From an uncultured Actinomycetota bacterium (lineage in GTDB: Bacteria > Actinomycetota > Actinomycetes > Streptomycetales > Streptomycetaceae): a DNA stretch of 32,000 nucleotides. The notes beneath the pieces are model-generated. The model was not told the DNA's origin. It did no database searches and was given only the letters and a program-made list of their open reading frames with translations. The stretch lies in the NCBI GenBank assembly GCA_963761325.1, contig CAVXGZ010000001.1, forward strand, positions 1,859,020 through 1,891,019. The letters run 5' to 3'. A program made the translations under genes and the position numbers. This document shows positions 5,000 to 23,729 of this stretch, piece by piece; position 1 is the first letter of the stretch, and each line of letters begins with the position of its first letter.

Positions 5000-5203
5000 G
5001 GCGATCCCGTCCCGTCCCAGCTCGTCGCCGCGCCGAAACGGCCCGACCCGCCGATGATGGCACCCCCTCGCCACCCCCGGAACCACCCCCCGTGCCCGCC
5101 CGGCCCCCGTCCGCGACCGCCCCCCCGGTACGCAGGTGAAACGCACCCCCAATCCTTGGTATCGTTTACCCGTCGCCGCGGCCCACCAGCCGCGACTCAC
5201 CCC

Positions 5204-5288
5204 GTCCGGGTGGCGGAATGGCAGACGCGCTAGCTTGAGGTGCTAGTGCCCTTTATCGGGCGTGGGGGTTCAAGTCCCCCCTCGGACA
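5204..5288 (+). tRNA. tRNA-Leu (anticodon GAG), class II with long variable arm
   Basis: Folded by hand. The acceptor stem GTCCGGG pairs with CTCGGAC (one G-U), with discriminator A. The anticodon stem-loop is CTAGC-TTGAGGT-GCTAG, giving anticodon GAG. The variable arm is GCCC-TTTATC-GGGC. The T arm is GGGGG-TTCAAGT-CCCCC. Confidence 0.9.
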
Positions 5289-5305
5289 CGCACACTACGC
5301 CTACG

Positions 5306-5344
5306 GGTGCTGGCTGAACTTCGGCCAGCACCTTTTGCGTTTCG
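5306..5344 (+). terminator. rho-independent terminator downstream of tRNA-Leu
   Basis: A perfect 9-bp stem, GGTGCTGGC (5306-5314) with GCCAGCACC (5324-5332), encloses a 9-nt loop. It is followed by the T-rich tract TTTTGCGTTTCG. Confidence 0.6.
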
Positions 5345-5818
5345 TGGTCGTAGGTGAGGGTGAGCCCGGCTACCGCTGCACCTCGGCGTGTTCCCCGGTT
5401 GTGCGGCGTAAGCCGCCCGGGGGCGATCGGTCGGCCGTCTTCCCGGCAGGTCACTGGCCCCTGTGGGCGCTGTGAGTTCGGCCGCGTGCCGCCCATCGTG
5501 TTGCTGCCGGAAGGTCTCGCTCGACCCCGCGGATGACGGTGTGGCCGCTACGCCGTACGGTAGGCGAGCGACCACCTTCCGTCGCAGTGGCCGACTGCCA
5601 GTCCCCACCGCACGATGCGGTTCACGCTCCGGCGGGACGACGGCCGGCAGGCGCACGAGCGGGCCATGCCGCCGGTCCACCAGCCGCCGGTGCGCAGAAC
5701 GCGCGTCGCGATCCCGCCGTGCGCGCCTGGCCGGGATTCGGCTCTGCCGGGCCCCGGCGGCAGTCCGCGCCCATAGGCTGTGCAGCTCATGGGCCGGGCT
5801 GATCCCCGGAGGTGGCGG

Positions 5819-6556
5819 ATGACGGGCGGCGCGAGCAGGGGGACGGTGGGCCCGCCCGACGATTCCCCGCCCGGCGGGACGGCTGCGGCGCAGACCCCGG
5901 CCAGGTTCGACGACCACGTGCCGTTCCTGGCACGCCTCGAACACCAGGAGCGGGTCGCCCTGCTGGAGTTGGGCCGCCCGATCGGATACGCGCCCAAATC
6001 CGTTCTGGTGCACCAAGACGACGCCTCCGACCACGTGATCGTCATCCTCGACGGCTGGACGAAGGTGACGCGGTCCGCAGCGACGGGCTACGAAGCGTTG
6101 CTCGCCCTGCGCGGGCCCGGCAACATCGTCGGGGAGGCCTCCGCGGTGAGCGGGCGGCCCCGGTCCGCGACGGTGACCGCGCTCGGCGAGGTGGAGGCCG
6201 TCACCATCCAGCGCGACCGCTTCGTCGCCCATCTCCAGTCGTTCCCGGCCACCGCCCTCGGGAGCGCTGAACGCTGCCTCCGGACACCGGCCCACGCCTT
6301 CGCGGTCACCCCCGTCGGGGTGCTCGCGGCGGCGTGGGGTGGTGGCGGGGCCAGGTCACAGGCTCGGCGAGAGGAGCAGGTTGATAACGACGAAGTAGGC
6401 GCCGGTGAAGGCGTACGTCTGGAGGGGATCGCCGGAGAACTGGGAGTCGGATCCCCTCCGTGGTACGGGATCACCGGCGGCGCGATCCGGCTTGATCGCT
6501 CAGGACGGCTGCGGTGCATCGGTGAGAATCCACTACCGCGGGCTTGCTGCCCGTAG
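5819..6556 (+). pseudogene. Crp/Fnr-family cyclic-nucleotide-binding regulator, apparently truncated after the cNMP-binding barrel
   Basis: Residues ~35-143 from ATG 5819 form a cNMP-binding beta-barrel: FLARLEHQERVALLELG..VLVHQDDASDHVIVILDGWTKV..LALRGPGNIVGEASAVSGRPRSATVTALGEVEAVTIQRDRF. After about nt 6250 the frame loses coding character. In 6359-6448 only 17 of 30 codons end in G/C, and no convincing HTH follows. The ORF stays open to 6556 only by chance. Confidence 0.5.
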
Positions 6557-6606
6557 CAGAATTGACTCCTGAGGGATACGCAGTGTGACGCATTCGGGGG
6601 GATGTT

Positions 6607-6918
6607 GTGGCGGATCTGAAAACTGAGGGTGCGTCGTTGAATGCGGCGTCGTCGAAGATGTCGCATGCGTCGGATCCGTTGACGGGGCCGTTGCGGGAGT
6701 TCACGGCGGCGTCGCATGACCTGTCGGCGTTCGGGGTGTTGGGGTCGTTGCTGAAGGCGACGGGTGAGATCCGGGACGGGATGGAGAAGCTGTCCGGGAT
6801 CGTGGGTTCGCTGGGTGCGGAGTACGACGCGGAGGCCACCGGGCTGGGCGATGTGGCGAAGGTCTTCGACGAGATCGACACCGCGTTGGCCAAGGCCGCT
6901 TCCACGCGGCGGGGGTGA
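6607..6918 (+). CDS. small (103 aa) alpha-helical protein encoded directly upstream of the Rhs toxin; candidate WXG100-size secretion partner or chaperone
   Basis: GTG start with GGGGGGA 5 nt upstream. The stop lies 7 nt before the Rhs start. There is no signal peptide and no Cys or Trp. Two predicted helical halves are separated by SAFGVLG. Its size class and position match small helical partners of T7SS toxins. No family was recognised. Confidence 0.6.
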   Translation: MADLKTEGASLNAASSKMSHASDPLTGPLREFTAASHDLSAFGVLGSLLKATGEIRDGMEKLSGIVGSLGAEYDAEATGLGDVAKVFDEIDTALAKAASTRRG

Positions 6919-6925
6919 GCGGGTC

Positions 6926-9900
6926 GTGGATTTCAACCCGTTGCATCTGATCAACGAGTTGAACAACGCGATCGGGCATTCCACGGCGAGTGTGCTGGAG
7001 TTCCTCCACCTGACCGATCCGGCGGTGAGTCCGGCGGGGGTGCGCGAGGTCGCGAAGAAGTGGCGTGCGTTGGCCGGCGCGGTGGAGGACGCGGACCGCG
7101 CCGCGCAGCACGCGTTGCACGGGATCGTGTGGGAGGGCAAGGCCGCCGATGCGTTCGCGCACCGCGCCGGGCAGGTCCACCAGGAGGCCGGGAAGATCGC
7201 GGGCACGCTGCACCAGGGTGCCACCGCGATCGACAAGTTCGCGACGGAAGCGGACGATCTGATCTCGCAGATCGGGAACATCTGCGCGCAGATCGAGGAG
7301 ATGGAGGCTGCCGGACTCGCTCTGGACGTCCTGACCGAGGGGTTCGCCTCCTGCGCGGCGACCATCGCGGCCGGCGAACGCGCCACGCAGGTGGTGGCGT
7401 TGATCACCCGGATCGAGGAGTCCGGTTCGACGCTGGGGTCCGTGATCCGCACGATCGCCGAGGCCATCCGCTCCCTGGACCGCGTCCTGGAGGCGCTCAA
7501 GGACATCAAGGGCGTCGCCACGGTGGCCAAGTGGGCGGGCGAGGGGATGAAGTTCGCCGCCCTGGGCGATCTGTTGCAGGACCCGTCCGCCTTCACCCAC
7601 CCGGGCAAGCTGATGGACAGCCTCGCCGAGGGCGCGTTGATGGGGATCGGGTTCGGCGCGGCGGGCAAGGGCTTGGGCAAGGCGCTGGACGCGTTGTCCC
7701 CGGCCGCGTTGGGCGCGTTGAGCAAGACGCTGTGCAAGCTGGACGACCTGATACCCGAGGGATCCAAGCTGCGCCCCGGTGAGGACGACGGGATCCGCTC
7801 CAGCATCGCCAACGCCCTCAAACGCTTCAAGCAGGATCCGATCGACGTGGTCACCGGCGAGATGATGATCGCCCAGACCGACGCCGCCCTCCCCGGCATC
7901 CTCCCCCTGGTCCTGGAACGCACCCACCTGTCGTCGTACCGCACCGGCGGCTGGTTCGGCCCGTCGTGGGCCTCCACGCTCGACCAGCGTCTGCAACTCG
8001 ACGCCGACGGCGTGGTGTTGGCCACCGCCGACGGACTGCGCCTGTGCTACCAGCGCCCCGAACCGGGCGTCGCGACGTTCCCCGAACGCGGCCCGCGCCG
8101 GCCCCTGTTGTGGGACGGCCGCCCGGGCAGCCGCATGCGGGTCACCAACCCCGCCACCGGCCACACCCTGGTCTTCGCCCACCCCACCGGCGCCGGCCGG
8201 GACGGCGTCCTCGACCTGCCGCTGCAGGCGATCGAGGACCGCAACGGCAACTGGATCCGCATCCACCACAGCGTCATCGGCGTCCCCATCGAGATCGAAC
8301 ACCACGGCGGCTACCGCATAGCCGTCGACCGCCACCCCGACCGGCCCCGAATCACCGCCTACCGCCTCCTCGACGCCGACGGACCCGGCACCAGCACACC
8401 CCTGATGCGCTTCGGCTACGACGACCTCGGCCACCTCACCGAAGTCGTCAACTCCTCCGGCTTACCGCTGCGTTACACCTACGACCACGCCGGCCGCATC
8501 ACCTCCTGGACCGACCGCAACCACACCTCCTACCACTACACCTACGACACCGAAGGCCGCTGCGTCCGCGGCGAGGGCAGCGGCGGCTTCCAGTCCGGCA
8601 CCTTCGTCTACGACACCGCCCACCGCACCACCCGCGTCACCGACGCCCTCAGCCACACCTTCATCACCCAGTACAACGAAGCGCTACGGCCCGTCCGGGA
8701 GACCGACCCACTCGGCAACGTCACGATCACCGAATGGGACGACACCAATGAACACGTCGTCGCGGTGACCGATCCGCTCGGACGGATCACGCGGTACGAG
8801 TACGACGAGACGGGCAATGTCACCGCCGTTGAACGGCCGGACGGGACCGCCAAGACAGCGGCGTACAACGAGCTGAATCTCCCTGTGACGGTCACCGAGC
8901 CCGATGGCGGTATCTGGCGGTACACCTATGACTTCGGCGGCAATCGCCTGTCGGCCACTGACCCCGACGGATCCCGAACCGAATACGCCTATGACGCCGC
9001 GGGCGGCCTCGTCGCGGTCGTCAACGCGCTCGGTCACACCTGGCAGATGGAGAACAACTCTGCACGCCTCCCAGTTCTGTTCACCGACCCCCTGGGTCAT
9101 CGGACCGTGGTCGAACGGGATCGCTTCGGCAGGCATGCCGTACTGACCGACGCGCTCGAGAACACCACCAGGATCGGCTGGTCCGTTGAGGGACATCCGC
9201 TGTGGCGGGAACGTTCCGACGGCACGCGGGAGAGCTGGCGGTGGGACGGTGAGGGCAACCTCGCCGCGTACGCGGACCCGACCGGGAACACCACGATCTA
9301 CCGCGCGGGCCCGTTCGACCTTCCGGTATCCCGCACCAGTTCCGACGGGTCGACGCATTCTTTCGAGTACGACGGCGAGCTCAACCTCACCAAGGTCACC
9401 AACTCCCAGGGACTGAGCTGGACCTACGAGTACGACCCCGTCGGACGCCTGACGTCAGAGACCGATTTCGACGGCCGGACCCTGAACTACACCCGGGACG
9501 CTGCGGGCCGACTCGTCACCCGCACCAACGCACTCGGCCAGACCGTCACCTACCAACGCGACGCACTCGGCCAGGTCTCCGGCAAAGACGCCGACGGCCT
9601 CGTCACGACCTACACCCACGACCCGGTCGGCCGCCTCCTGCAAGCGGCCGGTCCGGACGCCGCCGTCACCTACCGGCACGACCGGCTCGGCCGAGTCGTG
9701 TCCGAGACCTGCAACGACCGCACCATGGCCTTCACCTACGACCCCCTGGGCAACCTCGTCCGTCGCACCACGCCCGCCGGCCACACGAGCACGTGGACCT
9801 ACGATTCCGCCGGCCGCCCCACGACACTGGCCACCGCCGGTCGCACAGTCGACTTCGAGCACGATCCCGTCGGCCGGGAGAGCACCCGCCGCTTCGGTGA

Positions 9901-11329
9901 GGACCTGACCCTGACCCAGGCATGGGACCCCATCGACCGGCTCACCGCCCAGACACTCATCGGCCGGGACTCCCGCACCATCCAACGCCGCGCCTACACC
10001 TACCGTGCCGACGAGTGTCTCGCCGCCCTCGACGACCACCTCAACGGCCCTCATACCTACGACCTTGACGCCACTGGCCGGGTCACCGCCGTCCACGCCG
10101 GCGACTGGGCCGAGCGCTACGCCTATGACGAAGCCGGCAACCAGACCACCGCCCAGTGGCCGCTCACCCACGCCGAGCCGGAAGCTATCGGTGATCGCGC
10201 CTACACCGGCACCCGCCTCACCCGTGCGGGCTCCATCCGCTACGAACACGATGCGCAGGGCCGCATCGTCCTCCGCCAGAAGAGCCGGCTGTCCCGCAAG
10301 CCGGACACCTGGCGTTATACCTGGGACGCCGAAGACCGGCTCACGGCGGTGACCACCCCGGACGGCACGGTCTGGCGTTACCTCTACGATCCGCTCGGCC
10401 GCCGCATCGCGAAACAGCGACTCGGTGACGACGGCGCCGTCCTCGAACACACCGACTTCGCCTGGGACGGAGTCACCCTCGCGGAAGAAGCTACCGCGAC
10501 GGCCTCCCGTTCCCAGCCGGTCATCCTGACCTGGGACCACATCGGTTCGCGCCCCATCGCGCAGACCGAGAGCAGGTCCGCCGCCGATGCCTCCCAGGAC
10601 GATGTGGACCGGCGCTTCTACGCCATCGTCACCGACCTCGTCGGCACGCCCAGCGAACTCGTCGACGAGCAAGGCGGCATAGCCTGGCGCACGCGCTCGA
10701 CGCTGTGGGGAAACGCCGCCTCGGCGACGGACGGATCCACGTCCACCCCCTTGCGTTTCCCGGGCCAGTACTTCGATCCCGAATCAGGACTGCACTACAA
10801 CGTCTACCGCTACTACGACCCGGCGACGGGCCGGTACGTCACGGCCGATCCCTTGGGACTGGAGCCCTCGCCGAACCCGCGCGGTTATGTGACGAACCCG
10901 CACCGCGAGATCGACCCGTTGGGGCTCATGTCGTGTGTGCCGCGGGTCTTCGCCGTTGATTCCGGCGGAGAAGCAGCCTCCCTCCCCGTGCATGAGATCG
11001 ACTCCGCCGTCCACGGGCCACAAGCGGCCAACTTCCTCAGAGCCGTGAACGACGGTGCTCCGGCGCTTGTTACGAGGAGGGCCGGAGGCGAGGCGGCAAC
11101 CAGGGCCGTGAGGCGTCAGGCACAAGCCCATGCGCCTCGGCCCACCTTGTTCGCCCCCAATGGAACCTGGGAGGAGTATCCTTTCGCTTCAACAGTCGAG
11201 GGCGGAAAGGGTGCGACGCTCACACTTTCCCCGAGGTCGGTTAATTCCAGTCATGGTTGGACTCTCAAGGAGTTTTACAAGGCGGCTGGCCTGAAAGTCG
11301 GCGATCAATACGTGGTCAGGATTGTCTGA
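6926..11329 (+). CDS. Rhs/YD-repeat polymorphic toxin (1467 aa): WXG-type helical N-terminal head, DUF6531-like plug, YD-repeat shell, RHS core with DPLGL, and a NucA/NucB-like DNase C-terminal tip
   Basis: The start is set at in-frame GTG 6926, because the track start 6764 overlaps the upstream gene with junk translation. A WEG motif lies at 7130-7138 inside a helical region (GIVWEGKAADAFAHRAG). DPIDVVTGEMM..LPLVLERTHLSS looks like a DUF6531-type domain. There are many YD repeats (YTYDxxGRL/V, e.g. YTYDHAGRITSWTD, YEYDPVGRLTSETD). The RHS core reads FPGQYFDPESGLHYNVYRYYDPATGRYVTADPLGL..NPHREIDPLGL. Confidence 0.9.
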   Translation: MDFNPLHLINELNNAIGHSTASVLEFLHLTDPAVSPAGVREVAKKWRALAGAVEDADRAAQHALHGIVWEGKAADAFAHRAGQVHQEAGKIAGTLHQGATAIDKFATEADDLISQIGNICAQIEEMEAAGLALDVLTEGFASCAATIAAGERATQVVALITRIEESGSTLGSVIRTIAEAIRSLDRVLEALKDIKGVATVAKWAGEGMKFAALGDLLQDPSAFTHPGKLMDSLAEGALMGIGFGAAGKGLGKALDALSPAALGALSKTLCKLDDLIPEGSKLRPGEDDGIRSSIANALKRFKQDPIDVVTGEMMIAQTDAALPGILPLVLERTHLSSYRTGGWFGPSWASTLDQRLQLDADGVVLATADGLRLCYQRPEPGVATFPERGPRRPLLWDGRPGSRMRVTNPATGHTLVFAHPTGAGRDGVLDLPLQAIEDRNGNWIRIHHSVIGVPIEIEHHGGYRIAVDRHPDRPRITAYRLLDADGPGTSTPLMRFGYDDLGHLTEVVNSSGLPLRYTYDHAGRITSWTDRNHTSYHYTYDTEGRCVRGEGSGGFQSGTFVYDTAHRTTRVTDALSHTFITQYNEALRPVRETDPLGNVTITEWDDTNEHVVAVTDPLGRITRYEYDETGNVTAVERPDGTAKTAAYNELNLPVTVTEPDGGIWRYTYDFGGNRLSATDPDGSRTEYAYDAAGGLVAVVNALGHTWQMENNSARLPVLFTDPLGHRTVVERDRFGRHAVLTDALENTTRIGWSVEGHPLWRERSDGTRESWRWDGEGNLAAYADPTGNTTIYRAGPFDLPVSRTSSDGSTHSFEYDGELNLTKVTNSQGLSWTYEYDPVGRLTSETDFDGRTLNYTRDAAGRLVTRTNALGQTVTYQRDALGQVSGKDADGLVTTYTHDPVGRLLQAAGPDAAVTYRHDRLGRVVSETCNDRTMAFTYDPLGNLVRRTTPAGHTSTWTYDSAGRPTTLATAGRTVDFEHDPVGRESTRRFGEDLTLTQAWDPIDRLTAQTLIGRDSRTIQRRAYTYRADECLAALDDHLNGPHTYDLDATGRVTAVHAGDWAERYAYDEAGNQTTAQWPLTHAEPEAIGDRAYTGTRLTRAGSIRYEHDAQGRIVLRQKSRLSRKPDTWRYTWDAEDRLTAVTTPDGTVWRYLYDPLGRRIAKQRLGDDGAVLEHTDFAWDGVTLAEEATATASRSQPVILTWDHIGSRPIAQTESRSAADASQDDVDRRFYAIVTDLVGTPSELVDEQGGIAWRTRSTLWGNAASATDGSTSTPLRFPGQYFDPESGLHYNVYRYYDPATGRYVTADPLGLEPSPNPRGYVTNPHREIDPLGLMSCVPRVFAVDSGGEAASLPVHEIDSAVHGPQAANFLRAVNDGAPALVTRRAGGEAATRAVRRQAQAHAPRPTLFAPNGTWEEYPFASTVEGGKGATLTLSPRSVNSSHGWTLKEFYKAAGLKVGDQYVVRIV
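10928..11326 (+). other. C-terminal toxin tip of the Rhs protein (aa 1335-1467), NucA/NucB-type deoxyribonuclease-like
   Basis: It begins immediately after DPLGL (10913-10927). WEEYPFASTVEGGKGATLTLSPRSVNSSHGW..GDQYVVRIV aligns by eye with the Bacillus NucA/NucB signature as I remember it (DEWPMA.C.EGG.GA.V.YV.PSDNRGAGSW..GT.VLF.I). By hand count, 11161-11280 has 63 G+C in 120 nt (about 52 percent), against 41 of 60 (68 percent) at 8521-8580 in the shell. Confidence 0.65.
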
Positions 11330-11342
11330 GGAGGATGGTCAG

Positions 11343-11894
11343 GTGCTTGAGGAGCGGATCGGGGAACTCTGGGAGGAAGCGGCGCGACTCGCCCTTCCGG
11401 TCGTGGCGCATAGGAAACCAGGCGTCCCGGCGGACTTCTTGGAGCGCGCTTTCGACCAGCGGATTCCTTCGGAGGTCGCAACCTGGTTCGCATCCTGCGA
11501 TGGCGTCGATCAGTACCCGGGGCAGACCCAGAATGACGCCGCTCTCGTTCCCGGCTATGAACCGCTCTCCGTCGACCAGTCGGTGGCGATACAGCGTGAA
11601 CAGATGTCGGAACCTCTCCTTCGTCCCACATTCTTTCCGCTGATCGGTGCCGGCGGCGGCGACTTCTACGCAGTGTCGTACGATCCGGAGACACAACGGT
11701 CGTCTGTCGTCAGCGTGGTGATCGGAGAGGAAACGAGGATCGCCTACCGAAGCGTCGATCAAATGGTAGAGACACTTGTTCAGTGCTACCGGGAGGGCAT
11801 CTTCTTCGTCGATGACGATGGCGTACTCCAAGCGGACGATGAACTCTGGATCCAGAAGGAGTACGACGCGCTCGGCATCTCGGCCGAGGAGTAG
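11343..11894 (+). CDS. SMI1/KNR4 (SUKH superfamily) immunity protein cognate to the Rhs toxin tip
   Basis: SUKH-like features are IPSEVATWFASCDG, EPLSVDQ and FFPLIGAGGGDFYAVSYDP. It lies immediately downstream of the toxin stop (11327-11329). GAGGAGGA at 11328-11335 sits 7 nt before GTG 11343; the track start TTG 11322 is the alternative. GC is visibly lower than in neighbouring genes. Confidence 0.8.
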   Translation: MLEERIGELWEEAARLALPVVAHRKPGVPADFLERAFDQRIPSEVATWFASCDGVDQYPGQTQNDAALVPGYEPLSVDQSVAIQREQMSEPLLRPTFFPLIGAGGGDFYAVSYDPETQRSSVVSVVIGEETRIAYRSVDQMVETLVQCYREGIFFVDDDGVLQADDELWIQKEYDALGISAEE

Positions 11895-12046
11895 TCGCCG
11901 GGGAGTTGGCGAACCACCCGGCTGATGTACGGAACGGCTGATGATGGAGCCGATCCGGTAGATACAGCCCCGCGCGGTGGTGGTCTGCCTGCGCCGAGGG
12001 GGCACTGGCCACCAACAGCGACGTCCGTCGCCCCGGTGACGTCGCG

Positions 12047-12749
12047 TGGTCGTTCTTCGTCACCGCTTCCCTGCCCGAGGAGCGGTGGCCCGACCGGGAC
12101 GACGAGGGACTGGCGCGGGAGTTGTCCCCGGTGCTCCGCGCCGACGTGCTGTACTCCCGTGGGATCCCTTGGCCGCCGTCCGTCGTGGACCTGATCCGGC
12201 CCCAACGGCGAGCACGTGTTCCGCGTCGACGACCTGGAGTTCGGCGACGAGCCGGGCGTGATCACCGGGGCGAGCGCCTCTCTGCCGGCGCTGCCGCACG
12301 TCCCCGTCGTCCGTTTCCCCGACGTCGCGTTGCAGGCCAGGATCCCGTCGCCGGTCACGGACGCGCTCTTCCCCCCGGACGACCACAAGCCCACCGCACC
12401 GCTGTACCCGCTGGTGCTCGCCATGGCCATGTGGGAGCAGTTGGTCGGGCGCATGGCGGCGGACTGGCCGCCGATGGGCTGGTTCGGCGCGGGACTCTAC
12501 GCGGACCGACTGGAGTACCGGGACGAGGTCATGGTGCGTCTGACCGATGCCCCCGAACCCCTCCGCAACGCGGTCCGGGAGGCTTTGGACCCGCTCGACG
12601 CCGCGTTCCGGGACGCCACCGTCGACGACGGAGGCGCCGCGCTCATCGCCTCCGGCGCGGCCACGGCCGAGGGCATCGCCGACAGCGCCTGGTACTGGCA
12701 CCGCCGCCCGCCGGTGCTGTCGTGGGAGCCGGGCGACATCCTCCGCTGA
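12047..12749 (+). pseudogene. hypothetical protein with an apparent frameshift at a C4 run (12200-12203); possible orphan immunity-type gene
   Basis: Frame 2 across 12047-12202 reads WSFFVTASLPEERWPDRDDEGLARELSPVLRADVLYSRGIPWPPSVVDLIRP, and 48 of 52 codons end in G/C, so it looks coding. The coding signal then continues in the frame of ORF 12216..12749 (NGEHVFRVDDLEFGDEPGV..). No canonical start codon lies in-frame between the upstream stop at 11942 and TTG 12122, so the protein-like stretch from 12047 has no start of its own. GTG 12216 (177 aa) is the alternative intact reading. Confidence 0.4.
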
Positions 12750-12875
12750 ACGGGCCCGTCGACACCTGCCGCTACACCGAGTTCGTCCGGTGCAGCGTCA
12801 TGACGAAGGCACCCCGGAAGAATTGACGTCATACAACGCCCGCACGGGGGCGGCGTACCGCATCCCCTGTTCGCC

Positions 12876-14333: not shown

Positions 14334-14997
14334 TCAGCTGCCGACCGGGCTGATGAACGTACCGGGGTGGGTCGCCCCGTCCTGGAGCAGCACGTGGCCC
14401 CAGCGCCACGGAATGTCGTAGGACTTGGTCTCGTTCGGCAGTGTGATCACCAGGATGGTGGGCGCGAAGTCGTTGGCGGCGGAGTTGCCCTCGGCGCTCC
14501 ACGGCAGGAAGGTCACCGTGAACTGGGTGGAGTCGCCGGGGTCGAGGGCGATGGTGTGCGGGGGCTGGGAACTGCGGGTGAGCGGCCACTGCTTGCCGCT
14601 GTTGTCCAGGTCGGCTCCCGGGAAGCCGCGCAGCACGCAGGTGTGGCCGCTGGTGTTCTTGAGGATGACGAACGCGCTCTGCTGCTCCGTCGAGTGGGGG
14701 TCGGGGACGGCGTCGCCGCCGGTGGCCCAGGAGTAGCTGACGTCGTCGGCGTGGCAACGGCTGGACCCGGTGGTACCCGTCGCGCCGGTCGGGCCGGTGG
14801 TCGGGCGGTGGTCGGGCGGCGGTCGGGCCGGTTGAGGTGCCGCCGCCGGCCGGGGCGGTGGTGCCGCTGGGCGAGGCGGACACGGGCGGCGGCGAGGAGG
14901 CCGCGTCCGAGGTCCCGGTGTCGCCGTTGCAGGCGCCCAGGGTGAGGACTCCCAGCGCCGTCGCCGTCACGGCGACCACAGTGCGCGCGAAATGCAT
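14334..14997 (-). pseudogene. DUF4232-type lipoprotein gene, frameshifted within its Gly/Pro/Thr linker
   Basis: The N-terminus, in the frame starting at 14997, reads MHFARTVVAVTATALGVLTLGACNGD (lipobox LGAC) followed by a Ser/Pro/Thr linker. The DUF4232-like domain (CHADDVSYSW..HTCVLRGFPGADLDNSGKQWPL..FTVTFLPW..) is in a different frame ending at 14334. That frame has no start codon of its own upstream of the internal GTG 14636. The frames switch inside the repeat at 14787-14828. Confidence 0.65.
14787..14828. repeat. short tandem repeat (GGTCGGGC core, spacings of 12, 11 and 11 nt) in the lipoprotein linker
   Basis: GGTCGGGC occurs at 14787-14794, 14799-14806, 14810-14817 and 14821-14828. 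On the coding strand the units are GGCCCGACC, GCCCGACC, GCCCGACC and GGCCCGACC. The peptide RPPPDHRP is encoded twice, at 14791-14814 in one frame and at 14802-14825 in the other. Confidence 0.75.
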
Positions 14998-16903: not shown

Positions 16904-16957
16904 CGCGCGAGGGCCTGCGCCCCGCGCACCACCGGGTGTGCGGGGCGCGGCGGCGGG

Positions 16958-17914
16958 TCAGCCGATGACCTTCCAGTGGTCGTAGGCGCTGATCATCTGG
17001 TAGTTGCGGTCCGGGCAGTAGAAGGCGCTGTTCGGCTGGTCGTAGTGGGTGTCGGCGTTCGCCGAGCTGGCGGGGGACCAGACGCCGTTGTCGCGGACCG
17101 AGATGTTGCTGGACTCGAAGGTCAGGCCGGTCATGTCGTCACAGGAGTACGCGTTGCCGGAGGGGCCGACCGTGGAGTAGAGCTCCTCGATGTCCCAGCC
17201 GTCGGTGCGGCCGGACTGGTTGGTCCCGGACTGGGTGAACAGGGTGTCCCACTGGCCGGTCGCGTAGTCGTAGAGCTGCGCGGACCAGGTGTTGGAGGCC
17301 GAGGAGGTCATGATGACGCGTCCGGTGTACGCGCCGGAGCCGTCGGTGTAGGTGCTCAGGAAGGAGCTGTCGATGGGCACCGAGGCGGCGAAGTTGACGC
17401 TCTGGCACCAGTCCCAGGCGGAGACCGAGCGGACGGACTGCGTGTAGACGGTGACGAGTTCGACGCAGGAGCCGCCGGGCGGGTACATGGTCGGGGTGTA
17501 GATGGTGGTGTAGCCGTCCGAGACGTTGAGCTGGGTGGAGACCGACTGGGTGGCGCACGAGCCGTCCGCGCCGGACATCGCCTTGAACGAGGTGCCCTGC
17601 GCCGGATGGATGTCGACCAGTGGCCGCCGTGTGGAGTCACCGGCGGTCCCGAGCGGGCCCTTGGCGGGTATCCCGTACTGCGCGCGGTGCTGCGCGGTGA
17701 GGGACGAGAGCTGGCGGTGCACCTCCGCCGTGGGCAGCGCCCCGCGGACGGTGTGCCGGGATACGGCCGCGGAGCTGCAGACGTCCGCCGCGCGGGGGCT
17801 CGCGGCGGGGTGTGCGGCGTGCGCGGGGCTGGCGGCGGCGGCGCCCAGACCGCAGCCCAGGACCAGGGCTGCTGCGGCGGCGAAGACGGCCGCCGTGGAC
17901 TTCAGACTTCTCAC
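16958..17914 (-). CDS. secreted (possibly lipo-) protein of unknown function, Ser/Thr/Tyr-rich and probably beta-rich
   Basis: The start is set at GTG 17914 (GAGAGGA about 10 nt upstream); the track extension to 18220 is R/P-rich junk. The signal peptide VRSLKSTAAVFAAAAALVLGCGLGAAAA contains an LGC lipobox-like motif. The mature part has paired Cys residues and many aromatic residues. No family was recognised with confidence. Confidence 0.7.
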   Translation of the reverse strand: MRSLKSTAAVFAAAAALVLGCGLGAAAASPAHAAHPAASPRAADVCSSAAVSRHTVRGALPTAEVHRQLSSLTAQHRAQYGIPAKGPLGTAGDSTRRPLVDIHPAQGTSFKAMSGADGSCATQSVSTQLNVSDGYTTIYTPTMYPPGGSCVELVTVYTQSVRSVSAWDWCQSVNFAASVPIDSSFLSTYTDGSGAYTGRVIMTSSASNTWSAQLYDYATGQWDTLFTQSGTNQSGRTDGWDIEELYSTVGPSGNAYSCDDMTGLTFESSNISVRDNGVWSPASSANADTHYDQPNSAFYCPDRNYQMISAYDHWKVIG

Positions 17915-18475
17915 GCTGATGCGATCCTCTCGGGAGGGCCAAGGGATGTGCGCAAAACATGTCCATGACAAGGCATGTCGATCAAAAAGAGAAGCCTTCG
18001 GTCGACTGTTGTCCGTCCGGGGTCGAGAAAAGTCCGGTTCCGCAGGTCCCGGGCCGGCGCCGGCGGGCCCGCGCCCTCCGGGCGCCGATGGTCCGACGCG
18101 GCGCGCGGCGCCGGGAGTTGGGGGCGGCCGGGCCGGGCGGCCGGTTCGCCCGAGATCACCCTCGATGGTCATTGAGGGCGCCGGAAGAGCCAATGAGCAG
18201 GCAATTCGCTGATCATTCAAGCGCCTTGTAATGGTAAAGCAAAGGTATAGAACCTTTTGAAAGGGTTGTCGGGGTGGGCCTGCCGGGCTACTTTTCCCGA
18301 GGCCCGTCTCCGGACCGGAACGGCCAGATATCCACGCAAATCGCGCAAGCGGGTCGCCACCGGCAGCTCAAGTGCCCCCGGCGGCCCGTCCGTTCCACGG
18401 CTCCACGGTTCATCAACCAGCTCCAGGTTTTCCCCCGGACCCAGCTCAGGTTCATCAACCACAGGAGGCACCACC

Positions 18476-19699
18476 TTGCGCAGACCCGCGCCCGCGGCCT
18501 TACGCCGCACCGGGCTCTCAGTGATCGCCGCCGCCGGACTCGCCCTCGGCGGTTTCGCGGCTGCCCCCTCCGCCAGTGCCGCGCAGGCCGGCCCCGCCGT
18601 GCACGGCGTGACCGTGACCCACTCCTGCGCCGCCCCGCGCGCCGGTTACCTGGCCTGCAACGCCCTGAAGGTCACCAGCGGCACGCACACCTCCGTCATC
18701 TCGCCGCTGGCCACGCCTTCCGGCTACGGGCCCACCGACCTGCTGAGCGCGTACGCCCTGCCGGCCAACGGCGGCGCGGGCCAGACCGTCGCGATCGTCG
18801 ACGCCCAGGACAACCCCAACGCGGCCTCGGACCTCGCCGTGTACCGGTCCACCTACGGCCTGCCGGCCTGCACGGTGGCGAACGGCTGCTTCAAGAAGGT
18901 GAGCCAGACCGGCAGCACCACCTCGCTGCCCTCCCCCGACGCGGGCTGGGCGGAGGAGGAGTCGCTGGACGTCGACATGGTCTCGGCCATCGCGCCCAAC
19001 GCCCACATCATCCTGGTCGAGGCGAACTCCGCCACGATGGCCAACCTCGGCGCGTCGGTCAACGAGGCCGTCTCGCTGGGCGCCAAGTTCGTCTCCAACA
19101 GCTACGGCGGCGGTGAGTCGTCGTCCGACACCTCGTACGACTCCTCCTACTTCAACCACACCGGCGTCGCCATCACCGCCAGCTCCGGTGACAGCAGCTA
19201 CGGCGTGGAGTACCCGGCGGCCTCCCGCTACGTCACGGCGGTCGGCGGCACCACCCTCAACCGCGCCTCCAACAGCCGCGGTTGGAGCGAGACCGTGTGG
19301 TCCGGCGCCGGATCCGGCTGCTCGGCGTACGACGCCAAGCCGTCCTGGCAGAAGGACACCGGCTGCTCCCGGCGCACCGTGGCCGACGTCTCCGCGGTGG
19401 CCGACCCGAACACCGGTGTCGCGGTCTACGACACCTACGGCGGCGACCCGGGCTGGGAGGTCTTCGGCGGCACCTCGGTCGCGTCGCCGATCATCGCCTC
19501 GGTCTACGCCGACGCCGGCACCCCGTCGGCCGGCTCGACCCCGTCGTCGTTCCCCTACGCCCACACCGGGAACCTCAACGACGTGACGAGCGGCTCCAAC
19601 GGCTCGTGCAGCCCGGCCTACCTGTGCACCGGTGAGGTCGGCTACGACGGCCCGACCGGTCTCGGCACCCCGAACGGGCTCACCGCCTTCAAGGGCTGA
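18476..19699 (+). CDS. secreted S53 (sedolisin/kumamolisin-like) family serine peptidase
   Basis: YGPTDLLSAYALP, GQTVAIVDAQDNP, EESLDVDMVSAIAPNAHIILVE, ITASSGDSSYG and the nucleophile motif GGTSVASPIIAS are characteristic of S8/S53-clan sedolisins. The start is set at TTG 18476 (AGGAGG 7 nt upstream). The signal LRRPAPAALRRTGLSVIAAAGLALGGFAAAPSASA has a possible Tat-like RR. Confidence 0.85.
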   Translation: MRRPAPAALRRTGLSVIAAAGLALGGFAAAPSASAAQAGPAVHGVTVTHSCAAPRAGYLACNALKVTSGTHTSVISPLATPSGYGPTDLLSAYALPANGGAGQTVAIVDAQDNPNAASDLAVYRSTYGLPACTVANGCFKKVSQTGSTTSLPSPDAGWAEEESLDVDMVSAIAPNAHIILVEANSATMANLGASVNEAVSLGAKFVSNSYGGGESSSDTSYDSSYFNHTGVAITASSGDSSYGVEYPAASRYVTAVGGTTLNRASNSRGWSETVWSGAGSGCSAYDAKPSWQKDTGCSRRTVADVSAVADPNTGVAVYDTYGGDPGWEVFGGTSVASPIIASVYADAGTPSAGSTPSSFPYAHTGNLNDVTSGSNGSCSPAYLCTGEVGYDGPTGLGTPNGLTAFKG

Positions 19700-19773: not shown

Positions 19774-22548
19774 TCAGTCGGCGCCCGCCAGGCCGGCGAG
19801 CTTGGTGTCGAGCCGGTCCGCGGTGGCGGTGTGGCCCAGTTCGACGAAGATGTCGAGGGCGTGCTGCCAGACCTCCCGGGCGGTGTCGGGATCGCCCGCG
19901 GCGTGTGCGGTGTCGCCGAGGTGGGCGAGCAGGGACGCCTCGTTGAACCGGTCGCCGCACTCGCGGTAGATGTCGCGGGCGCGTTCGTAGCAGGTGATGG
20001 CCTGCTGGTGCCGGCCGACGTTGTGGTGCACGAGGCCCAGGGTGTCCAGGGTGGAGCTCTCGCCGCTGTGGTCGCCGATCTCCCGCTGACGGGCGAGGGC
20101 GCTCTCGCAGAAGTCGACCGCCTCCGCGTACCGGCCGAGCTGCGTGTTGCACCAGCCGATGTTGTTGAGCGCCCTGGCCTCGCCGACCTGGTTGTTCGCC
20201 GCCTGGTACTTCCGCAGCGCCCGGGTGGCCTGGTCCAGCGCCCGGTGCAGGTCGTGTTGCCGTTCGAAGACGAGCGTCAGGTTGTTGTGGCAGTGCGCCT
20301 GGCCGAGCGGGTCGCCGAGTTCCCTGAAGAGCGCGACGGCTCGGTGCAGCAGGCGGTCGGCCTCGTCGTAGCGGCCCATCCTGGCGTTGGCCCGGCCCAG
20401 TTCGCTGTGCGCCGCCGCCTCCCCGGGCCGGTCGCCGAGCCGGTGGGCGGCTTCGAGGGCCGCGTGCTGGGTGGCGGCCCAGTCGTGCCAGTGGCCGCGC
20501 TGTTCGAGGTAGCTCGACATGGTGCGGGCCAGGTACCCGACCTGGGTGTCCGCGGCCGAGTCGACCGCGGCCAGCAGGGTCTGGTGCTCGGCGGCGAACC
20601 AGGCCAGCGCGCTGTCGCGGTCGGCGAAGGCCGCCGGCGGCACTCCGGGCCCGGGCGCGGGGAGTTCGATCGGGTCGCGGTGGCCCAGCATCGCGCCGGC
20701 GGCGTGTGCGGTGTGCAGGTAGTGGTCGACCAGCCGTTGCCGGGCGGTGGCCTGGTCCGCGGGCATGACGTCGTCGTGGGCGAGGGTGGTGGCGTAGGCC
20801 CGGAGCAGGTCGTGCATGCCGTAGCGGTCGGTGCCGGTCAGGTGGACCAGCTGCGCGCGGGTGAGCATGGTCAGGGCCGCGCGGGTGTGCTCCGGGGTGC
20901 GCCCGGCGAGGGCGGCGCAGGCGTTCAGCGAGATGTGCGGGCCCAACTGCAATCCCAGCAGCCGGAAGACGCGCGCCGCGGCGGCCGGCAGGTGCTGGTA
21001 GGACCAGGAGAAGACCGCGCTGACCGAGTAGCCGACCGAGTCCAGCATGCCCAGCCGCCGCCGGCGGTCGGTCAGTTCCGACACCAGGTCGGGCAGCGGG
21101 GTGGTGCGCTCCGTGGCGGCGAGCTCCGCCGCCACCCGCAGCGCCAGCGGCAGCCCCACGCACTGGTTGACCAGCGCCTCGCCGACCGCCGGCTCGCGGT
21201 CGACGCGGTCGCCGATCAGCCTGCGTAACAGGTCCAGCGAGTCGTCCATCGGCAGCAGGCCGAGGCCGACCCGCCGGGCGCCGTGCCGGGCGACCAGCCC
21301 GCCCAGGGTGTCGCGGCTGGTCACCGCGACCGCGCAGGACCCGGTGCCGGGCAGCATCGGCCGGACCTGCTCCACCGAGGAGGCGTTGTCCAGCACGACG
21401 AGGATCCGGCGGCCGCTGACCTCGGTGCGGTACCGGGCGATCCGGTCGGCCGCCTCCAACGGGATCTCGTGGGCGGGCAGTCCCAGCGCGGACAGCAGCC
21501 TGGCCAGTGCCTCGGTGCCGGACAGCGGCTGCTGCGGCGCGTAACCGTGCAGGTCGACGTAGAGCTGGCCGTCCGGGAAGCGGGCCCGCGCCTGGTGCGC
21601 CCAGTGCAGGACCAGCGTCGTCTTGCCGACCCCGGCCGTCCCGGACACCACCGCGATGGGCACCGCGGTGCCGTCGGTCCCGAGCAGGATCTGGTCCAGG
21701 TCGCCGAGTTCGCGCTGCCGGCCGACGAAGTCGGTCACGTCGCCGGGCAGGGTGGCGGGCACCATCCGGCGCGGTGACCGCCCGGCGCGGCGTCCGGTGT
21801 CCTTCGCCAGGAGCGCGCCGTAGGCGGAGACCAGCTCGGGACCCGGGTCGATGCCGAGCTCGTCGGCGAGCGTCCGCCGGGCCTGGTGGTAGGTGCCGAC
21901 CGCCGCCGCCCGCCGGCCGGCCGCGTCGTAGCCGCGGATGAGGCGTGCCAGGGCCGCCTCGTCCAACGGACGGGCGTGCGCGGCCTGTTCGAAGAGCACG
22001 ACGGCCTCGTCGACCGCTCCGGTGGCCAGCAGCATCTCACCCTTGGCCGCCGTCGCCGCGATCCGTTCCTCGATCAGCGCGAGGACCGGTGGATGAGCCG
22101 CCAGCGCGGGCACGTCGGTCAGCGGCGAGTCCGCCCGCCACAGGTCCAGCGCGGAGTCCAGCAGCGCGAGGGCGCCCGCGTGGTCGCCCGTCTGCTGGGC
22201 CGCCGCGGCCCGGCTCACCCGGGCGCGGAAGGAGAGGACGTCGAGTTCGCAGCTCTGGGTGCGCAGCACGTAGCCGTCGCCGACCGACGGAAGCAGCGAG
22301 CTGGGCGTGCGGGGCGTCCGGTCCGGTTCGAGCAGCCGGCGCAGGTGCTTGACGTGGGTCTGCAGGACGTTGACCGCGGAATGGGGCGGGCCGTCGGACC
22401 ACATGGCGTCGATGAGCTCCGCCCGGGAGACCGGCCTGCCCGCCGCCAGCCCGAGCAGGCCGAGGACCGCCCGCCGACCCGCCGTCGGCACGTCGAGGTG
22501 GACGCCGTCCCGTAAGACCCGCACCGGGCCGAGCAACTGGACCTGCAC
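19774..22548 (-). CDS. AfsR/SARP-family large transcriptional regulator (OmpR-type winged helix + BTAD + NB-ARC ATPase + TPR)
   Basis: The N-terminus VQLLGPVRVLRDGVHLDV..RAVLGLLGLAAGRPVSRAELIDAMW is the SARP DNA-binding domain. The BTAD region reads DVLSFRARV..ALALLDSALDLWRADSPL..RLIRGYDAAGRRAAAVGTYHQARRTLADELGIDPGPEL. The Walker A motif is VSGTAGVGKTTL. The C-terminus has TPR-like repeats (YAEAVDFCESALA.., HQQAITCYERARDIY..). GTG start at 22548 with GGGGGGA 7 nt upstream. Confidence 0.9.
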   Translation of the reverse strand: MQVQLLGPVRVLRDGVHLDVPTAGRRAVLGLLGLAAGRPVSRAELIDAMWSDGPPHSAVNVLQTHVKHLRRLLEPDRTPRTPSSLLPSVGDGYVLRTQSCELDVLSFRARVSRAAAAQQTGDHAGALALLDSALDLWRADSPLTDVPALAAHPPVLALIEERIAATAAKGEMLLATGAVDEAVVLFEQAAHARPLDEAALARLIRGYDAAGRRAAAVGTYHQARRTLADELGIDPGPELVSAYGALLAKDTGRRAGRSPRRMVPATLPGDVTDFVGRQRELGDLDQILLGTDGTAVPIAVVSGTAGVGKTTLVLHWAHQARARFPDGQLYVDLHGYAPQQPLSGTEALARLLSALGLPAHEIPLEAADRIARYRTEVSGRRILVVLDNASSVEQVRPMLPGTGSCAVAVTSRDTLGGLVARHGARRVGLGLLPMDDSLDLLRRLIGDRVDREPAVGEALVNQCVGLPLALRVAAELAATERTTPLPDLVSELTDRRRRLGMLDSVGYSVSAVFSWSYQHLPAAAARVFRLLGLQLGPHISLNACAALAGRTPEHTRAALTMLTRAQLVHLTGTDRYGMHDLLRAYATTLAHDDVMPADQATARQRLVDHYLHTAHAAGAMLGHRDPIELPAPGPGVPPAAFADRDSALAWFAAEHQTLLAAVDSAADTQVGYLARTMSSYLEQRGHWHDWAATQHAALEAAHRLGDRPGEAAAHSELGRANARMGRYDEADRLLHRAVALFRELGDPLGQAHCHNNLTLVFERQHDLHRALDQATRALRKYQAANNQVGEARALNNIGWCNTQLGRYAEAVDFCESALARQREIGDHSGESSTLDTLGLVHHNVGRHQQAITCYERARDIYRECGDRFNEASLLAHLGDTAHAAGDPDTAREVWQHALDIFVELGHTATADRLDTKLAGLAGAD

Positions 22549-22646
22549 GTCTGGATCCCCCCGCGCTCTCCCCGGACCCTTCGACGCACGCGAAGGATGA
22601 CTCGTCGTCCAGTCGCCATCCAGTGGTGCTTCATAGCTTAATCGAG

Positions 22647-22671
22647 GAACTCAACCGGGGGAGAACTCAAC
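22647..22671 (+). promoter_or_regulatory. direct repeat GAACTCAAC x2 in the SARP/operon divergent intergenic region (candidate activator-binding site)
   Basis: GAACTCAAC occurs at 22647-22655 and again at 22663-22671 (16-nt register). It lies in the lower-GC part of the 140-nt intergenic region, just upstream of the first operon gene. No clear -10 hexamer was seen. Confidence 0.3.
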
Positions 22672-22688
22672 GTGATCGGCGATGACGC

Positions 22689-23729
22689 ATGTCCGGGTCC
22701 GGACGTGCCGGCGGTGCTGGTGGGCGGCTCGTGACGCTGCGTCTGCACGCCAACGAACACCCGCAGGGCCCGCCCGCCGGCATCGTCGACGCCCTGCACG
22801 CGCTCATCCCGCAGCTGCACCGGTACCCGGCTCCGTCCAGCGCCCTGCAGACCGCGATAGCGGAGCTGCACGACGTCCCGCTGAACCGGGTCCTGGTCGG
22901 CGCGGGCAGCGCCGAGATCATCAGCCTGGCCTGGCGGGCGTTCACCGGCCCGGCCAAGGCGGTCTTCTTCCACGAGCCCGAGTTCGAGTTCTACCGGATG
23001 CTGAGCGCCCAGTGCGGCTCCCCGACGCTCACCCGGCCGTGGCCGCTCGGCGAGGACCTGGCCGCACACCTGGCGGGTGAGCGGGTCGGACTGGTGGCCC
23101 TGTCCAACCCGCACAATCCCACCGGCGCCCGGCGGCCCAGGCAGGAGATCGCGGAGCTGGCGCGCGGCCTGCCCGACTCGACGGTCCTGCTCAACGACGA
23201 GGCGTACCACGACTTCGCGGACGTGGACGACGCCGAACCCTCGCTGCGGGCCATGTCCGAGCTGCCCAACGTGCTGACCACCAGGACCTTCTCCAAGATC
23301 CACGGGCTGGCCGGCCTGCGGATCGGCTACGGGGTCGGCGACGCCCGCCTGATCAACGCGCTGCGAACGCTGCAGACGCCGTTCAGCGTGAGCACGGCCG
23401 CCGGCACCGCCGCACTCGCCGCGCTCGCCGACCCGGCCGCCCTGGTGGAGCGTCGCGCGCGCAACCGGGAGCAACGGGAGGCGCTGGCGGCGCAGTTGAC
23501 CCGGCGCGGCTTCGAGGTGTCGCCGAGCCAGGCCAACTTCCTGTTCGTCCGGCCGCCGCACGGCCGCTCCACCTGGGCCACCGATCTGCTCGACCACGGT
23601 GTCCGCGTCCAACCGTTCGATGCCGACCTGCGGGTGACCGTGGGCTCCGCCACCGAGGTCGCCGCTCTCATCGAGGCGGTCGACCACCTTCTGTCGTCCG
23701 TTCAGCCGAGCACCCTGGGGGAATCATGA
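22689..23729 (+). CDS. histidinol-phosphate aminotransferase family (class II PLP-dependent) aminotransferase
   Basis: LHANEHPQGPP is an LNENP-like N-terminal motif. LSNPHNPTG, LNDEAYHDF and the PLP-lysine motif RTFSKIHGLAGLRIGYG are also present. The alternative start is GTG 22731. Confidence 0.85.
   Translation: MSGSGRAGGAGGRLVTLRLHANEHPQGPPAGIVDALHALIPQLHRYPAPSSALQTAIAELHDVPLNRVLVGAGSAEIISLAWRAFTGPAKAVFFHEPEFEFYRMLSAQCGSPTLTRPWPLGEDLAAHLAGERVGLVALSNPHNPTGARRPRQEIAELARGLPDSTVLLNDEAYHDFADVDDAEPSLRAMSELPNVLTTRTFSKIHGLAGLRIGYGVGDARLINALRTLQTPFSVSTAAGTAALAALADPAALVERRARNREQREALAAQLTRRGFEVSPSQANFLFVRPPHGRSTWATDLLDHGVRVQPFDADLRVTVGSATEVAALIEAVDHLLSSVQPSTLGES

Follow-up and report, generated by a model that had tools for sequence, protein, structure and literature searches.

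Organization of the locus

We analyzed a 32,000-nucleotide (nt) stretch of DNA, hereafter the window, from contig CAVXGZ010000001.1 of assembly GCA_963761325.1, which carries a three-gene polymorphic-toxin operon of a Streptomyces-type actinobacterium. The operon consists of a small partner gene, a gene for a large Rhs toxin with a WXG100-type head, and a candidate immunity gene. With a G+C content (GC) of about 71%, the window has a base composition typical of Streptomyces, and the close relatives of the studied genes all come from Streptomyces or its neighbors. Using homology searches, structure models and a survey of related loci across genomes, we found that partner and head form a genetically locked pair, and that the head belongs, at the family level, with type VII secretion system (T7SS) proteins. 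The three genes of the operon are:

6607..6918, + strand: partner gene, from GTG at 6607 to TGA at 6916-6918, 103 amino acids (aa); candidate T7SS targeting factor
6926..11329, + strand: Rhs polymorphic toxin gene, GTG start, 1467 aa; Pfam matches to RHS_repeat, DUF6531, RHS and DNase_NucA_NucB
11322..11894, + strand: candidate immunity gene, 190 aa, TTG start; overlaps the Rhs stop by 8 nt

An earlier note on this DNA, made from its letters alone, had described an all-helical open reading frame (ORF) of 103 aa ending 7 nt before the gene for a 1467-aa Rhs protein. Both the coordinates, with 7 nt (6919-6925) between the partner stop and the Rhs GTG at 6926, and the AlphaFold2 (AF2) model of the partner agree with this description. 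A called protein identical to the 1467-aa product is present in public data, where it is a singleton at 90% identity. The public sequence identical to the partner (P0006) is called from the internal Met18, which makes it 86 aa long. We rejected this start and preferred the GTG at 6607, because homologues keep the first 17 residues (MADLKTE..), the GC at third codon positions (GC3) is 0.865, and a G-rich, Shine-Dalgarno-like run (GGGGGGA) lies upstream of 6607; the 103-aa form is thus the better model. Its GC3, its conservation in 49 loci and its invariant motifs also rule against a chance ORF. A second 103-aa ORF of the window (14425-14736) was considered as a paralogue of the partner and rejected, its translation being Cys/Trp-rich and matching no family. 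Scans of positions 5200-12800 for promoters, terminators and inverted repeats gave nothing useful.

The WXG100-type head of the Rhs toxin

The N-terminal part of the Rhs protein is a helical head with the following features:

6926..7834, + strand: helical head, aa 1-303; family-conserved part aa 1 to about 275
7019..7276, + strand: WXG100-like hairpin in the head, aa 32-117; sub-threshold matches to Pfam WXG100 and WXG100_2 and to TIGR03930
7130..7138, + strand: W69-E70-G71, hairpin loop between helices 36-65 and 72-137 of the AF2 model

The Rhs protein begins with VDFNPLHLINELNN, which is not hydrophobic; over 19-residue stretches of the head, the Kyte-Doolittle mean peaks at 1.4, and this peak lies at aa 131-149, away from the N-terminus. 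Sec-related, PAAR and anchor families are absent from the Pfam hits of the Rhs protein at E<=1, so that the claim of a toxin with no signal peptide, Sec, PAAR or wall-anchor module stands. The W-E-G that the earlier note placed at residues 69-71 maps to 7130-7138 as given there. Its description of the head as helical and rich in Ala and Gly is also borne out, the AF2 model being all-helical and the composition including 18% Ala, 11% Leu, 10% Gly and 6.6% Ile; with 6.6% Glu, calling it Glu-rich was a slight overstatement. The AF2 model, built from the family alignment, has helices at residues 5-26, 36-65, 72-137 and 140-192, with WEG in the loop of residues 66-71. Its mean predicted local distance difference test score (pLDDT) is 70.6, with values of about 85-95 over residues 30-190 and low confidence past residue 195.

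An exhaustive HMMER search with residues 1-303 against 1.84 billion cluster representatives returned 47 relatives at E<=1e-3, 18 of them at E<=1e-30. Most are toxins of 340-530 aa that have residues 1 to about 275 in common and then diverge, with C-terminal ends matching Cytotoxic, RNAse_A_bac, Ntox24, ART and ADPrib_exo_Tox. Residues 1 to about 275 of the head are part of a small actinobacterial family. Among 29 head homologues, Pfam finds WXG100_2 in 24 (best E 1e-15), WXG100 in 20 (best E 1.2e-12), PPE in 13 (best E 3.3e-9) and T7SS_signal in nine (best E 1.9e-5). Distant relatives are named "WXG100 family type VII secretion target" by NCBI. The head family profile matches Staphylococcus aureus EsxA (2vs0) in the PDB with E=3e-9 over head positions 39-116, and also matches SAG1039, Geobacillus EsxA and Bacillus anthracis EsxB. 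The matches of the homologues and of the profile both uphold the WXG-type head that had been proposed. PPE41 appears in the head searches with a marginal profile E of about 0.4 and a Foldseek probability of 0.91 at E of about 0.2, and the window's own head has no PPE hit in Pfam. LXG (PF04740) is absent from the Pfam hits at E<=1 for both the full Rhs protein and the head.

The WxG motif is kept in 41/41 related heads. In the distant members, W69 is kept in 26/29 and G71 in 28/29, the three exceptions reading LxG. By eye, no YxxxD/E-like export motif is evident in the WXG100-like region of the head. At the family level, the head is best read as a WXG100/PPE-like trafficking domain of polymorphic toxins.

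The last third of the head, aa ~200-303 (window 7526-7834), is conserved and was modeled at low confidence. Its features include DPxAFxxPxKL and a stretch rich in Gly, EGALMGIGFGAAGKGLGKAL. As far as about residue 275, this region is also present in the small toxins of the head family. It may serve as a linker or interact with the membrane.

The partner protein

In the AF2 model the partner is all-helical, with helices at residues 2-19, 26-35 and 40-102 and a mean pLDDT of 78.9. It forms an asymmetric hairpin with arms of about 34 and 63 residues, mirroring the arms of 30 and 66 residues of the head hairpin. A helical hairpin was the outcome that the earlier note had made a test of its partner idea. 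Two motifs stand out:

6718..6750, + strand: D-L-S-A-[FL]-G-[AV]-L-G-S-L, partner aa 38-48; turn and start of the long helix
6865..6879, + strand: F87-D88-E-I-D91 of the partner; candidate export arm of the FxxxD type

Residues D38, L39, S40, A41, G43 and G46 are invariant in 42/42 sequences, and the modeled helix runs from residue 40. FDxxD is located in the long helix 40-102, close to its C-terminal end: position 87 is F in 37 of the 42 sequences and L in four, D88 is present in 41, and position 91 is D in 40 and E in two.

The partner falls outside WXG100, its turn motif being DLSA[FL]G instead of WxG. The window's partner has no Pfam or NCBIfam match and no PE hit; among 35 homologues, EspB_PE matches one at E=0.085. 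DUF3130 and DUF3958 gave no hits at E<=0.1 for the partner or the 35 homologues, and in the clustered flanks of the related loci a single small helical gene is conserved. Assignment to a known family (WXG100, PE or Lap) was therefore rejected, the profile, Pfam, fold and hhalign searches all being non-significant. The homologues are mostly nameless or called "hypothetical protein", and the UniRef entry for one of them (P0010) reads "WXG100 family type VII secre…". The partner family is thus an unannotated one, with no model in Pfam or NCBIfam.

Pairing of partner and head across genomes

A homologue search with the partner found 12 relatives. When 185,579 species genomes were scanned for DLSA[FL]G[AV]LGS, 42 loci came up, almost all of them in Streptomyces. 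A head-bearing toxin lies directly downstream of the partner in 49/49 loci. The gap between partner and head genes is 7-70 nt in most loci, and in the Kineococcus locus the genes overlap by a few bases (overall -1 to 70 nt). About 38 of the toxins in the 49 loci are Rhs proteins of 1350-1507 aa; the toxin encoded after the partner varies, as in these loci:

L003, Streptomyces RB6PN25: Rhs
L005, Streptomyces NBC_01283: Rhs
L004, Streptomyces SL13: ADP-ribosyltransferase
L001, metagenome-assembled genome: ADP-ribosyltransferase
L007, Kineococcus: Ntox24

Between partner and head, pairwise distances show a correlation of r=0.93, compared to 0.64 for partner and shell and 0.69 for head and shell. 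Partner and head therefore behave as one evolving unit: the two are genetically locked together, and the partner evolves in step with the head. The invariable position upstream of a head-bearing toxin, the co-diversification and the conserved FDxxD agree with a dedicated partner, as had been suggested from the single locus.

Several loci depart from this simple layout. Distant head relatives (357-376 aa; Pfam WXG100, WXG100_2 and PPE) have a gene of 107-109 aa that overlaps their start by 4 nt, and a gene of 450-477 aa downstream (L050 9681-12498, L052 9675-12498 and L053 9681-12579). The 107-109-aa proteins carry IHDGFGxL, which resembles SHDLSAFGxL of the partner; hhalign gives only 3.6% probability. 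With these distant pairs, a small helical gene followed by a WXG/PPE-like gene is apparently a general Streptomyces arrangement. The Streptomyces canus locus L053 has a second pair at 16913-19196, in which a DUF6317 protein (104 aa) is followed by a 433-aa protein with a weak T7SS_signal match and then by a 223-aa protein, and a Peptidase_S8 gene is found upstream of its WXG/PPE-like gene, about 8 kb away.

Streptomyces sp. NBC_01283 has two overlapping ORFs called for the head (333 aa) and for the Rhs body (1165 or 1149 aa) (L005 8001-12432, L006 2512-6943). The split is present in both the complete genome and an independent read assembly; a genuine frameshift or pseudogene could account for it, and so could a split toxin. 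Some genomes have several partner-head modules (L024; L014, L016 and L020). In L024 (1063-5749 and 10001-10430) two modules lie 9 kb apart, with just a short head fragment detected in the second, and Streptomyces sp. NPDC051320 has three loci, with the head truncated at 139 aa in L016.

Rhs shell, DNase tip and immunity candidate

Downstream of the head, the Rhs gene encodes a shell with a self-cleavage motif and a predicted nuclease tip:

7835..8044, + strand: DUF6531 plug, which precedes the Rhs shell, aa 304-373; PF20148, E=4.3e-23
8045..10846, + strand: Rhs/YD-repeat shell, aa ~374-1307; 13 RHS_repeat stretches, TEN_YD-shell and NF041261 RHS_core
10847..10927, + strand: canonical aspartyl autoproteolysis motif DPLG-(18 aa)-DPLGL, aa 1308-1334, found by regular expression
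10928..11329, + strand: predicted C-terminal NucA/NucB-type DNase, aa 1335-1467 (133 aa) plus stop

The repeats match PF05593 (E=4.5e-83), TIGR01643 (E=2.7e-71) and NCBIfam YD_repeat_2x, and TIGR03696 Rhs_assc_core matches with E=6.4e-21. The cleavage motif at aa 1308-1334 reads DPLGLEPSPNPRGYVTNPHREIDPLGL, and, by regular expression, 33 related Rhs proteins have DPxG-18-DPxGL at this position too. The tip matches PF14040 DNase_NucA_NucB with E=8.2e-21 (74.8 bits, cut-off 23.8). The tips of the 34 motif-bearing Rhs proteins fall into 20 mutually unrelated C-terminal clusters, among which the NucA/NucB DNase of the window is unique.

The immunity candidate has a weak match to SMI1_KNR4/SUKH-1 (E=1.1e-3, 20.1 bits, cut-off 25.4), and no signal peptide is evident in its 190-aa translation. 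In the related locus L003, a clear SUKH gene lies downstream of the Rhs gene. Head and shell have GC of 0.685-0.687 and GC3 of 0.87-0.93, compared to GC 0.619 and GC3 0.66 for the toxin tip and GC 0.607 for the immunity gene, and this break in composition (window 10847-11894) falls exactly at the DPLGL cleavage site. The low-GC DNase and the SUKH-like gene are a toxin/immunity cassette of the kind that is swapped among relatives, and the drop in GC fits a recently swapped-in cassette.

Proposed export route and its alternatives

From the head and its partner we infer that the Rhs toxin is routed through a T7SS. We think it probable that the full reading holds, in which the partner-head bundle is the ESX export signal, the DNase is released and a SUKH-like protein gives protection. 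The partner hairpin would pack on the WXG hairpin of the head into a four-helix bundle, as in EsxA/EsxB, PE/PPE and Lap1/LXG. The bundle would set the FDxxD export arm of the partner beside the WxG loop of the head, and the two would together make a bipartite signal for the EccC ATPase of the genome's ESX (T7SSa) machine, which would export the toxin. Cleavage after DPLGL (residue 1334) would then release the DNase from the Rhs shell, either outside the cell or in a target cell, and the freed enzyme would degrade DNA, while the cytoplasmic SUKH-type protein would keep the producer and its kin immune.

A number of findings weigh against this reading. Pfam searches of 23 window ORFs, including the three operon genes, found no eccB, eccC, eccD or mycP in the 32-kb window, and around the 42 related genome loci no ESX apparatus gene is evident up to a distance of 10 kb. 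Clustering of the flanking ORFs of these loci revealed no recurrent apparatus-like family, and none of the flanking ORFs of at least 600 aa has more than one Walker A motif, so none is EccC-like; the modules are therefore orphan substrate loci. With no apparatus genes found nearby, it is head homology that has to carry the whole T7SS link. The window head taken alone is sub-threshold, both for PF06013 WXG100 (19.7 bits, cut-off 27.3) and for TIGR03930 (E=9e-5, 22.6 bits, cut-off 44.85), and its fold search is non-specific, with BAR domains top-ranked. The partner profile matches only designed coiled coils in the PDB, Foldseek finds no match for the partner, Pfam finds WXG100 in 2/35 partner members at a non-significant E of 0.007, and hhalign of the partner against the head family gives 2.7% probability. 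The SUKH-type assignment of the immunity protein is weak and has to be regarded as tentative. Finally, it is hard to see how a folded Rhs protein of about 160 kDa passes the T7SS channel.

The absence of a linked apparatus also bears on an alternative that we consider unlikely, namely that the partner-head complex is not a T7SS signal and instead serves oligomerization, envelope attachment or target-cell binding and entry, with export by lysis, vesicles or another pathway. No apparatus gene is linked to any of 43 loci, and head residues 200-300 are conserved and Gly-rich. A hint at an ESX-free function on the envelope side comes from the two other families that recur in the flank clustering, a lipoprotein of about 215 aa (LSACGG lipobox) and a signal-peptide protein of about 346 aa. 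In about half of the loci their genes, which are co-oriented, immediately precede the partner gene; they are absent from the window and encode proteins with no Pfam family. In addition, a 2026 paper states that T7SSb secretion of WXG-headed toxins has not been shown experimentally (PMC13483458). Against such a function stands the fact that the sole recognizable head family is WXG100/PPE, whose known members are T7SS substrates, and that the partner has the export-arm-like FDxxD. Moreover, it is common for modules of T7SS substrates to be encoded at a distance from the apparatus genes (PMC13492133).

A second alternative keeps the T7SS route and makes the partner a co-secreted EsxB-like substrate or a cytoplasmic stabilizing chaperone, with FDxxD irrelevant to recognition. 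Small WXG100-like proteins encoded next to T7SS toxins have several documented roles, both of these included (PMC10327511, PMC11217815), and Lap1 itself was reported not to be secreted (PMC9600955). We nevertheless find this alternative rather improbable, since FDxxD is kept in 37-41 of 42 sequences at the place where known export arms lie and the WXG100-like region of the head has no YxxxD/E-like motif that we could see. The simplest reading is therefore that the signal is provided in trans. It is very improbable that the Rhs protein is never exported and acts inside the producer, for instance in abortive infection or addiction, where the SUKH-like protein would be the antitoxin: its lack of a classical signal peptide, the overlapping gene for a cytoplasmic immunity candidate and the lack of a linked secretion apparatus would fit, but the trafficking-type head, the encapsulating shell with its self-cleavage site and the 20 interchangeable tips are the signature of an exported polymorphic toxin (PMC3482391), and a helical partner with an export-arm motif would have no obvious role.

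Returning to the T7SS-routed toxin with a targeting partner, we tentatively go one step further. The partner may be the founder of an undescribed, Streptomycetaceae-centered family of single T7SSa targeting factors, functionally analogous to PE and Lap1 proteins, that supply FDxxD in trans to a WXG/PPE-like head; by way of this head, the Streptomyces ESX machine would export an entire Rhs cage of about 160 kDa to kill other bacteria. This proposal is plausible and falls somewhat short of probable.

Comparison with known systems

The catalogue of Zhang et al. (2012, PMC3482391) lists WxG, LxG and LDxD heads for the T7SS/ESX route in combination with RHS repeats in Firmicutes and Actinobacteria (Table 1), and nuclease tips with Imm-SUKH immunity proteins (Table 2). 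The window has the same architecture as its WXG-headed RHS toxins, with a WXG-type head, Rhs, nuclease and SUKH; the catalogue does not describe the head subfamily of the window or, in its accessible parts, the 103-aa partner family. Rhs proteins have since been described as "genetically linked" to T7SSa and T7SSb, and T7SS substrates as usually having small Lap-related partners (Garrett et al. 2024, PMC11217815).

The closest described case is LrhA of Listeria, a Rhs toxin that its authors predict to be a T7SS substrate (Bowran et al. 2023, PMC10327511). In the LrhA/LxpABC locus, as in the window, DUF6531 precedes the repeats, the toxin gene is followed by an immunity gene, and what is encoded upstream of it is small and all-helical. 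It differs in adjoining essC8, in having three partners, one of them a canonical WXG100 protein, in belonging to a T7SSb of Bacillota and in its membrane-anchored immunity protein with an extracellular domain, whereas the window, from an actinobacterial (T7SSa) host, has one family-less partner and a SUKH-like immunity candidate that is cytoplasmic, and lacks apparatus genes nearby.

The LXG toxins TelA, TelC and TelD of Streptococcus intermedius, with Lap1/Lap2 or LapA3/LapA4 (Klein et al. 2022, 2024), likewise have upstream-encoded helical proteins that bind a helical head. In this system an FxxxD or acidic export arm near the end of partner helix 2, by the L/WxG turn of the head, is needed for export. 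For Lap1 (DUF3130), FxxxD is essential for export of the LXG toxin, is dispensable for complex formation and overlays YxxxE of PE25 (PMC9600955). FDxxD of the window's partner lies at a place equivalent to FxxxD of Lap1. On the other hand, the window has no LXG, DUF3130 or DUF3958 match, one partner rather than two, WxG rather than LxG, a T7SSa rather than a T7SSb host, and a Rhs shell as payload rather than a bare toxin domain.

Mycobacterial PE-PPE pairs such as PE25-PPE41 also place a helical hairpin protein of about 100 aa just upstream of a longer helical protein with WxG between two long helices, and the small protein gives the export arm in trans; as noted above, close to half of the window-head homologues (13/29) match Pfam PPE. 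The window departs from this group in that its head scores below the PPE model, its partner is not a PE protein, its motif is FDxxD rather than YxxxD/E, and its cargo is a Rhs protein of antibacterial type rather than a PE/PPE-type extension. No EspG chaperone was identified, and no genome-wide EspG search was made. With the PAAR-Rhs proteins of type VI secretion systems and the Sec-dependent WapA-type proteins, the window has in common the Rhs shell, DPxG-18-DPxGL, an interchangeable tip and an adjacent immunity gene; it has no PAAR/prePAAR, signal peptide or wall anchor, and has a WXG100-type head and a partner instead.

The window system thus falls outside LXG/Lap and, by its partner, outside PE/PPE, yet on present evidence it would seem to work like both. 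Its likeness to the LXG/Lap toxins of Firmicutes is best taken as analogy, not membership, and a PE/PPE-like pairing appears to describe the pair at least as well.

Other features of the window

The other genes of the window encode an MFS transporter, AsnC- and LysR-type regulators, an SBF-like transporter, FdhD, a cNMP-binding protein, GH43, an FMN reductase-like protein, a SARP-type regulator, an aminotransferase, an amino-acid permease and others, with no ESX component among them. The SARP-type regulator (19774-22650, - strand) is 958 aa long, contains Trans_reg_C, BTAD, NB-ARC and TPR, and adjoins the aminotransferase gene. Positions 23700-27250 contain no ORF with the normal high-GC codon-position signature; in the candidates, GC at first codon positions exceeds GC3, so that gene calls there are doubtful. 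Among the related loci, the pair of lipoprotein and signal-peptide genes described above is seen in L005 (5939-7617) and in L013, L018-L022, L024-L026, L028-L032, L039 and L041.

Significance

The earlier note had believed the combination of an ESX route and a Rhs cage to be computationally predicted and experimentally thin, which matches the literature (PMC3482391, PMC11217815, PMC13483458). The class was predicted computationally in 2012 and has never been tested in Streptomyces; the window is a well-supported example of it and no conceptual surprise. Streptomyces is documented to have ESX loci, and up to now its type VII secretion has been linked with development and not with warfare (Fyans et al. 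2013, as cited in PMC13492133).

Together with about 40 Streptomyces relatives, the locus offers a compact three-gene test system with WxG, FDxxD and DPLGL as mutational targets. It could show whether the ESX machines of actinobacteria are used to fire antibacterial toxins, whether a single small helical protein suffices as a targeting factor, and how a large Rhs cage passes a T7SS; the 42 loci could also seed a family model for the partner. If the partner is indeed a targeting factor of this new kind and ESX does export the whole Rhs cage, the locus would represent the first antibacterial T7SSa effector class shown in Streptomyces, and it would give direct evidence that a T7SS moves a Rhs cocoon, either unfolded or through a channel much wider than assumed.

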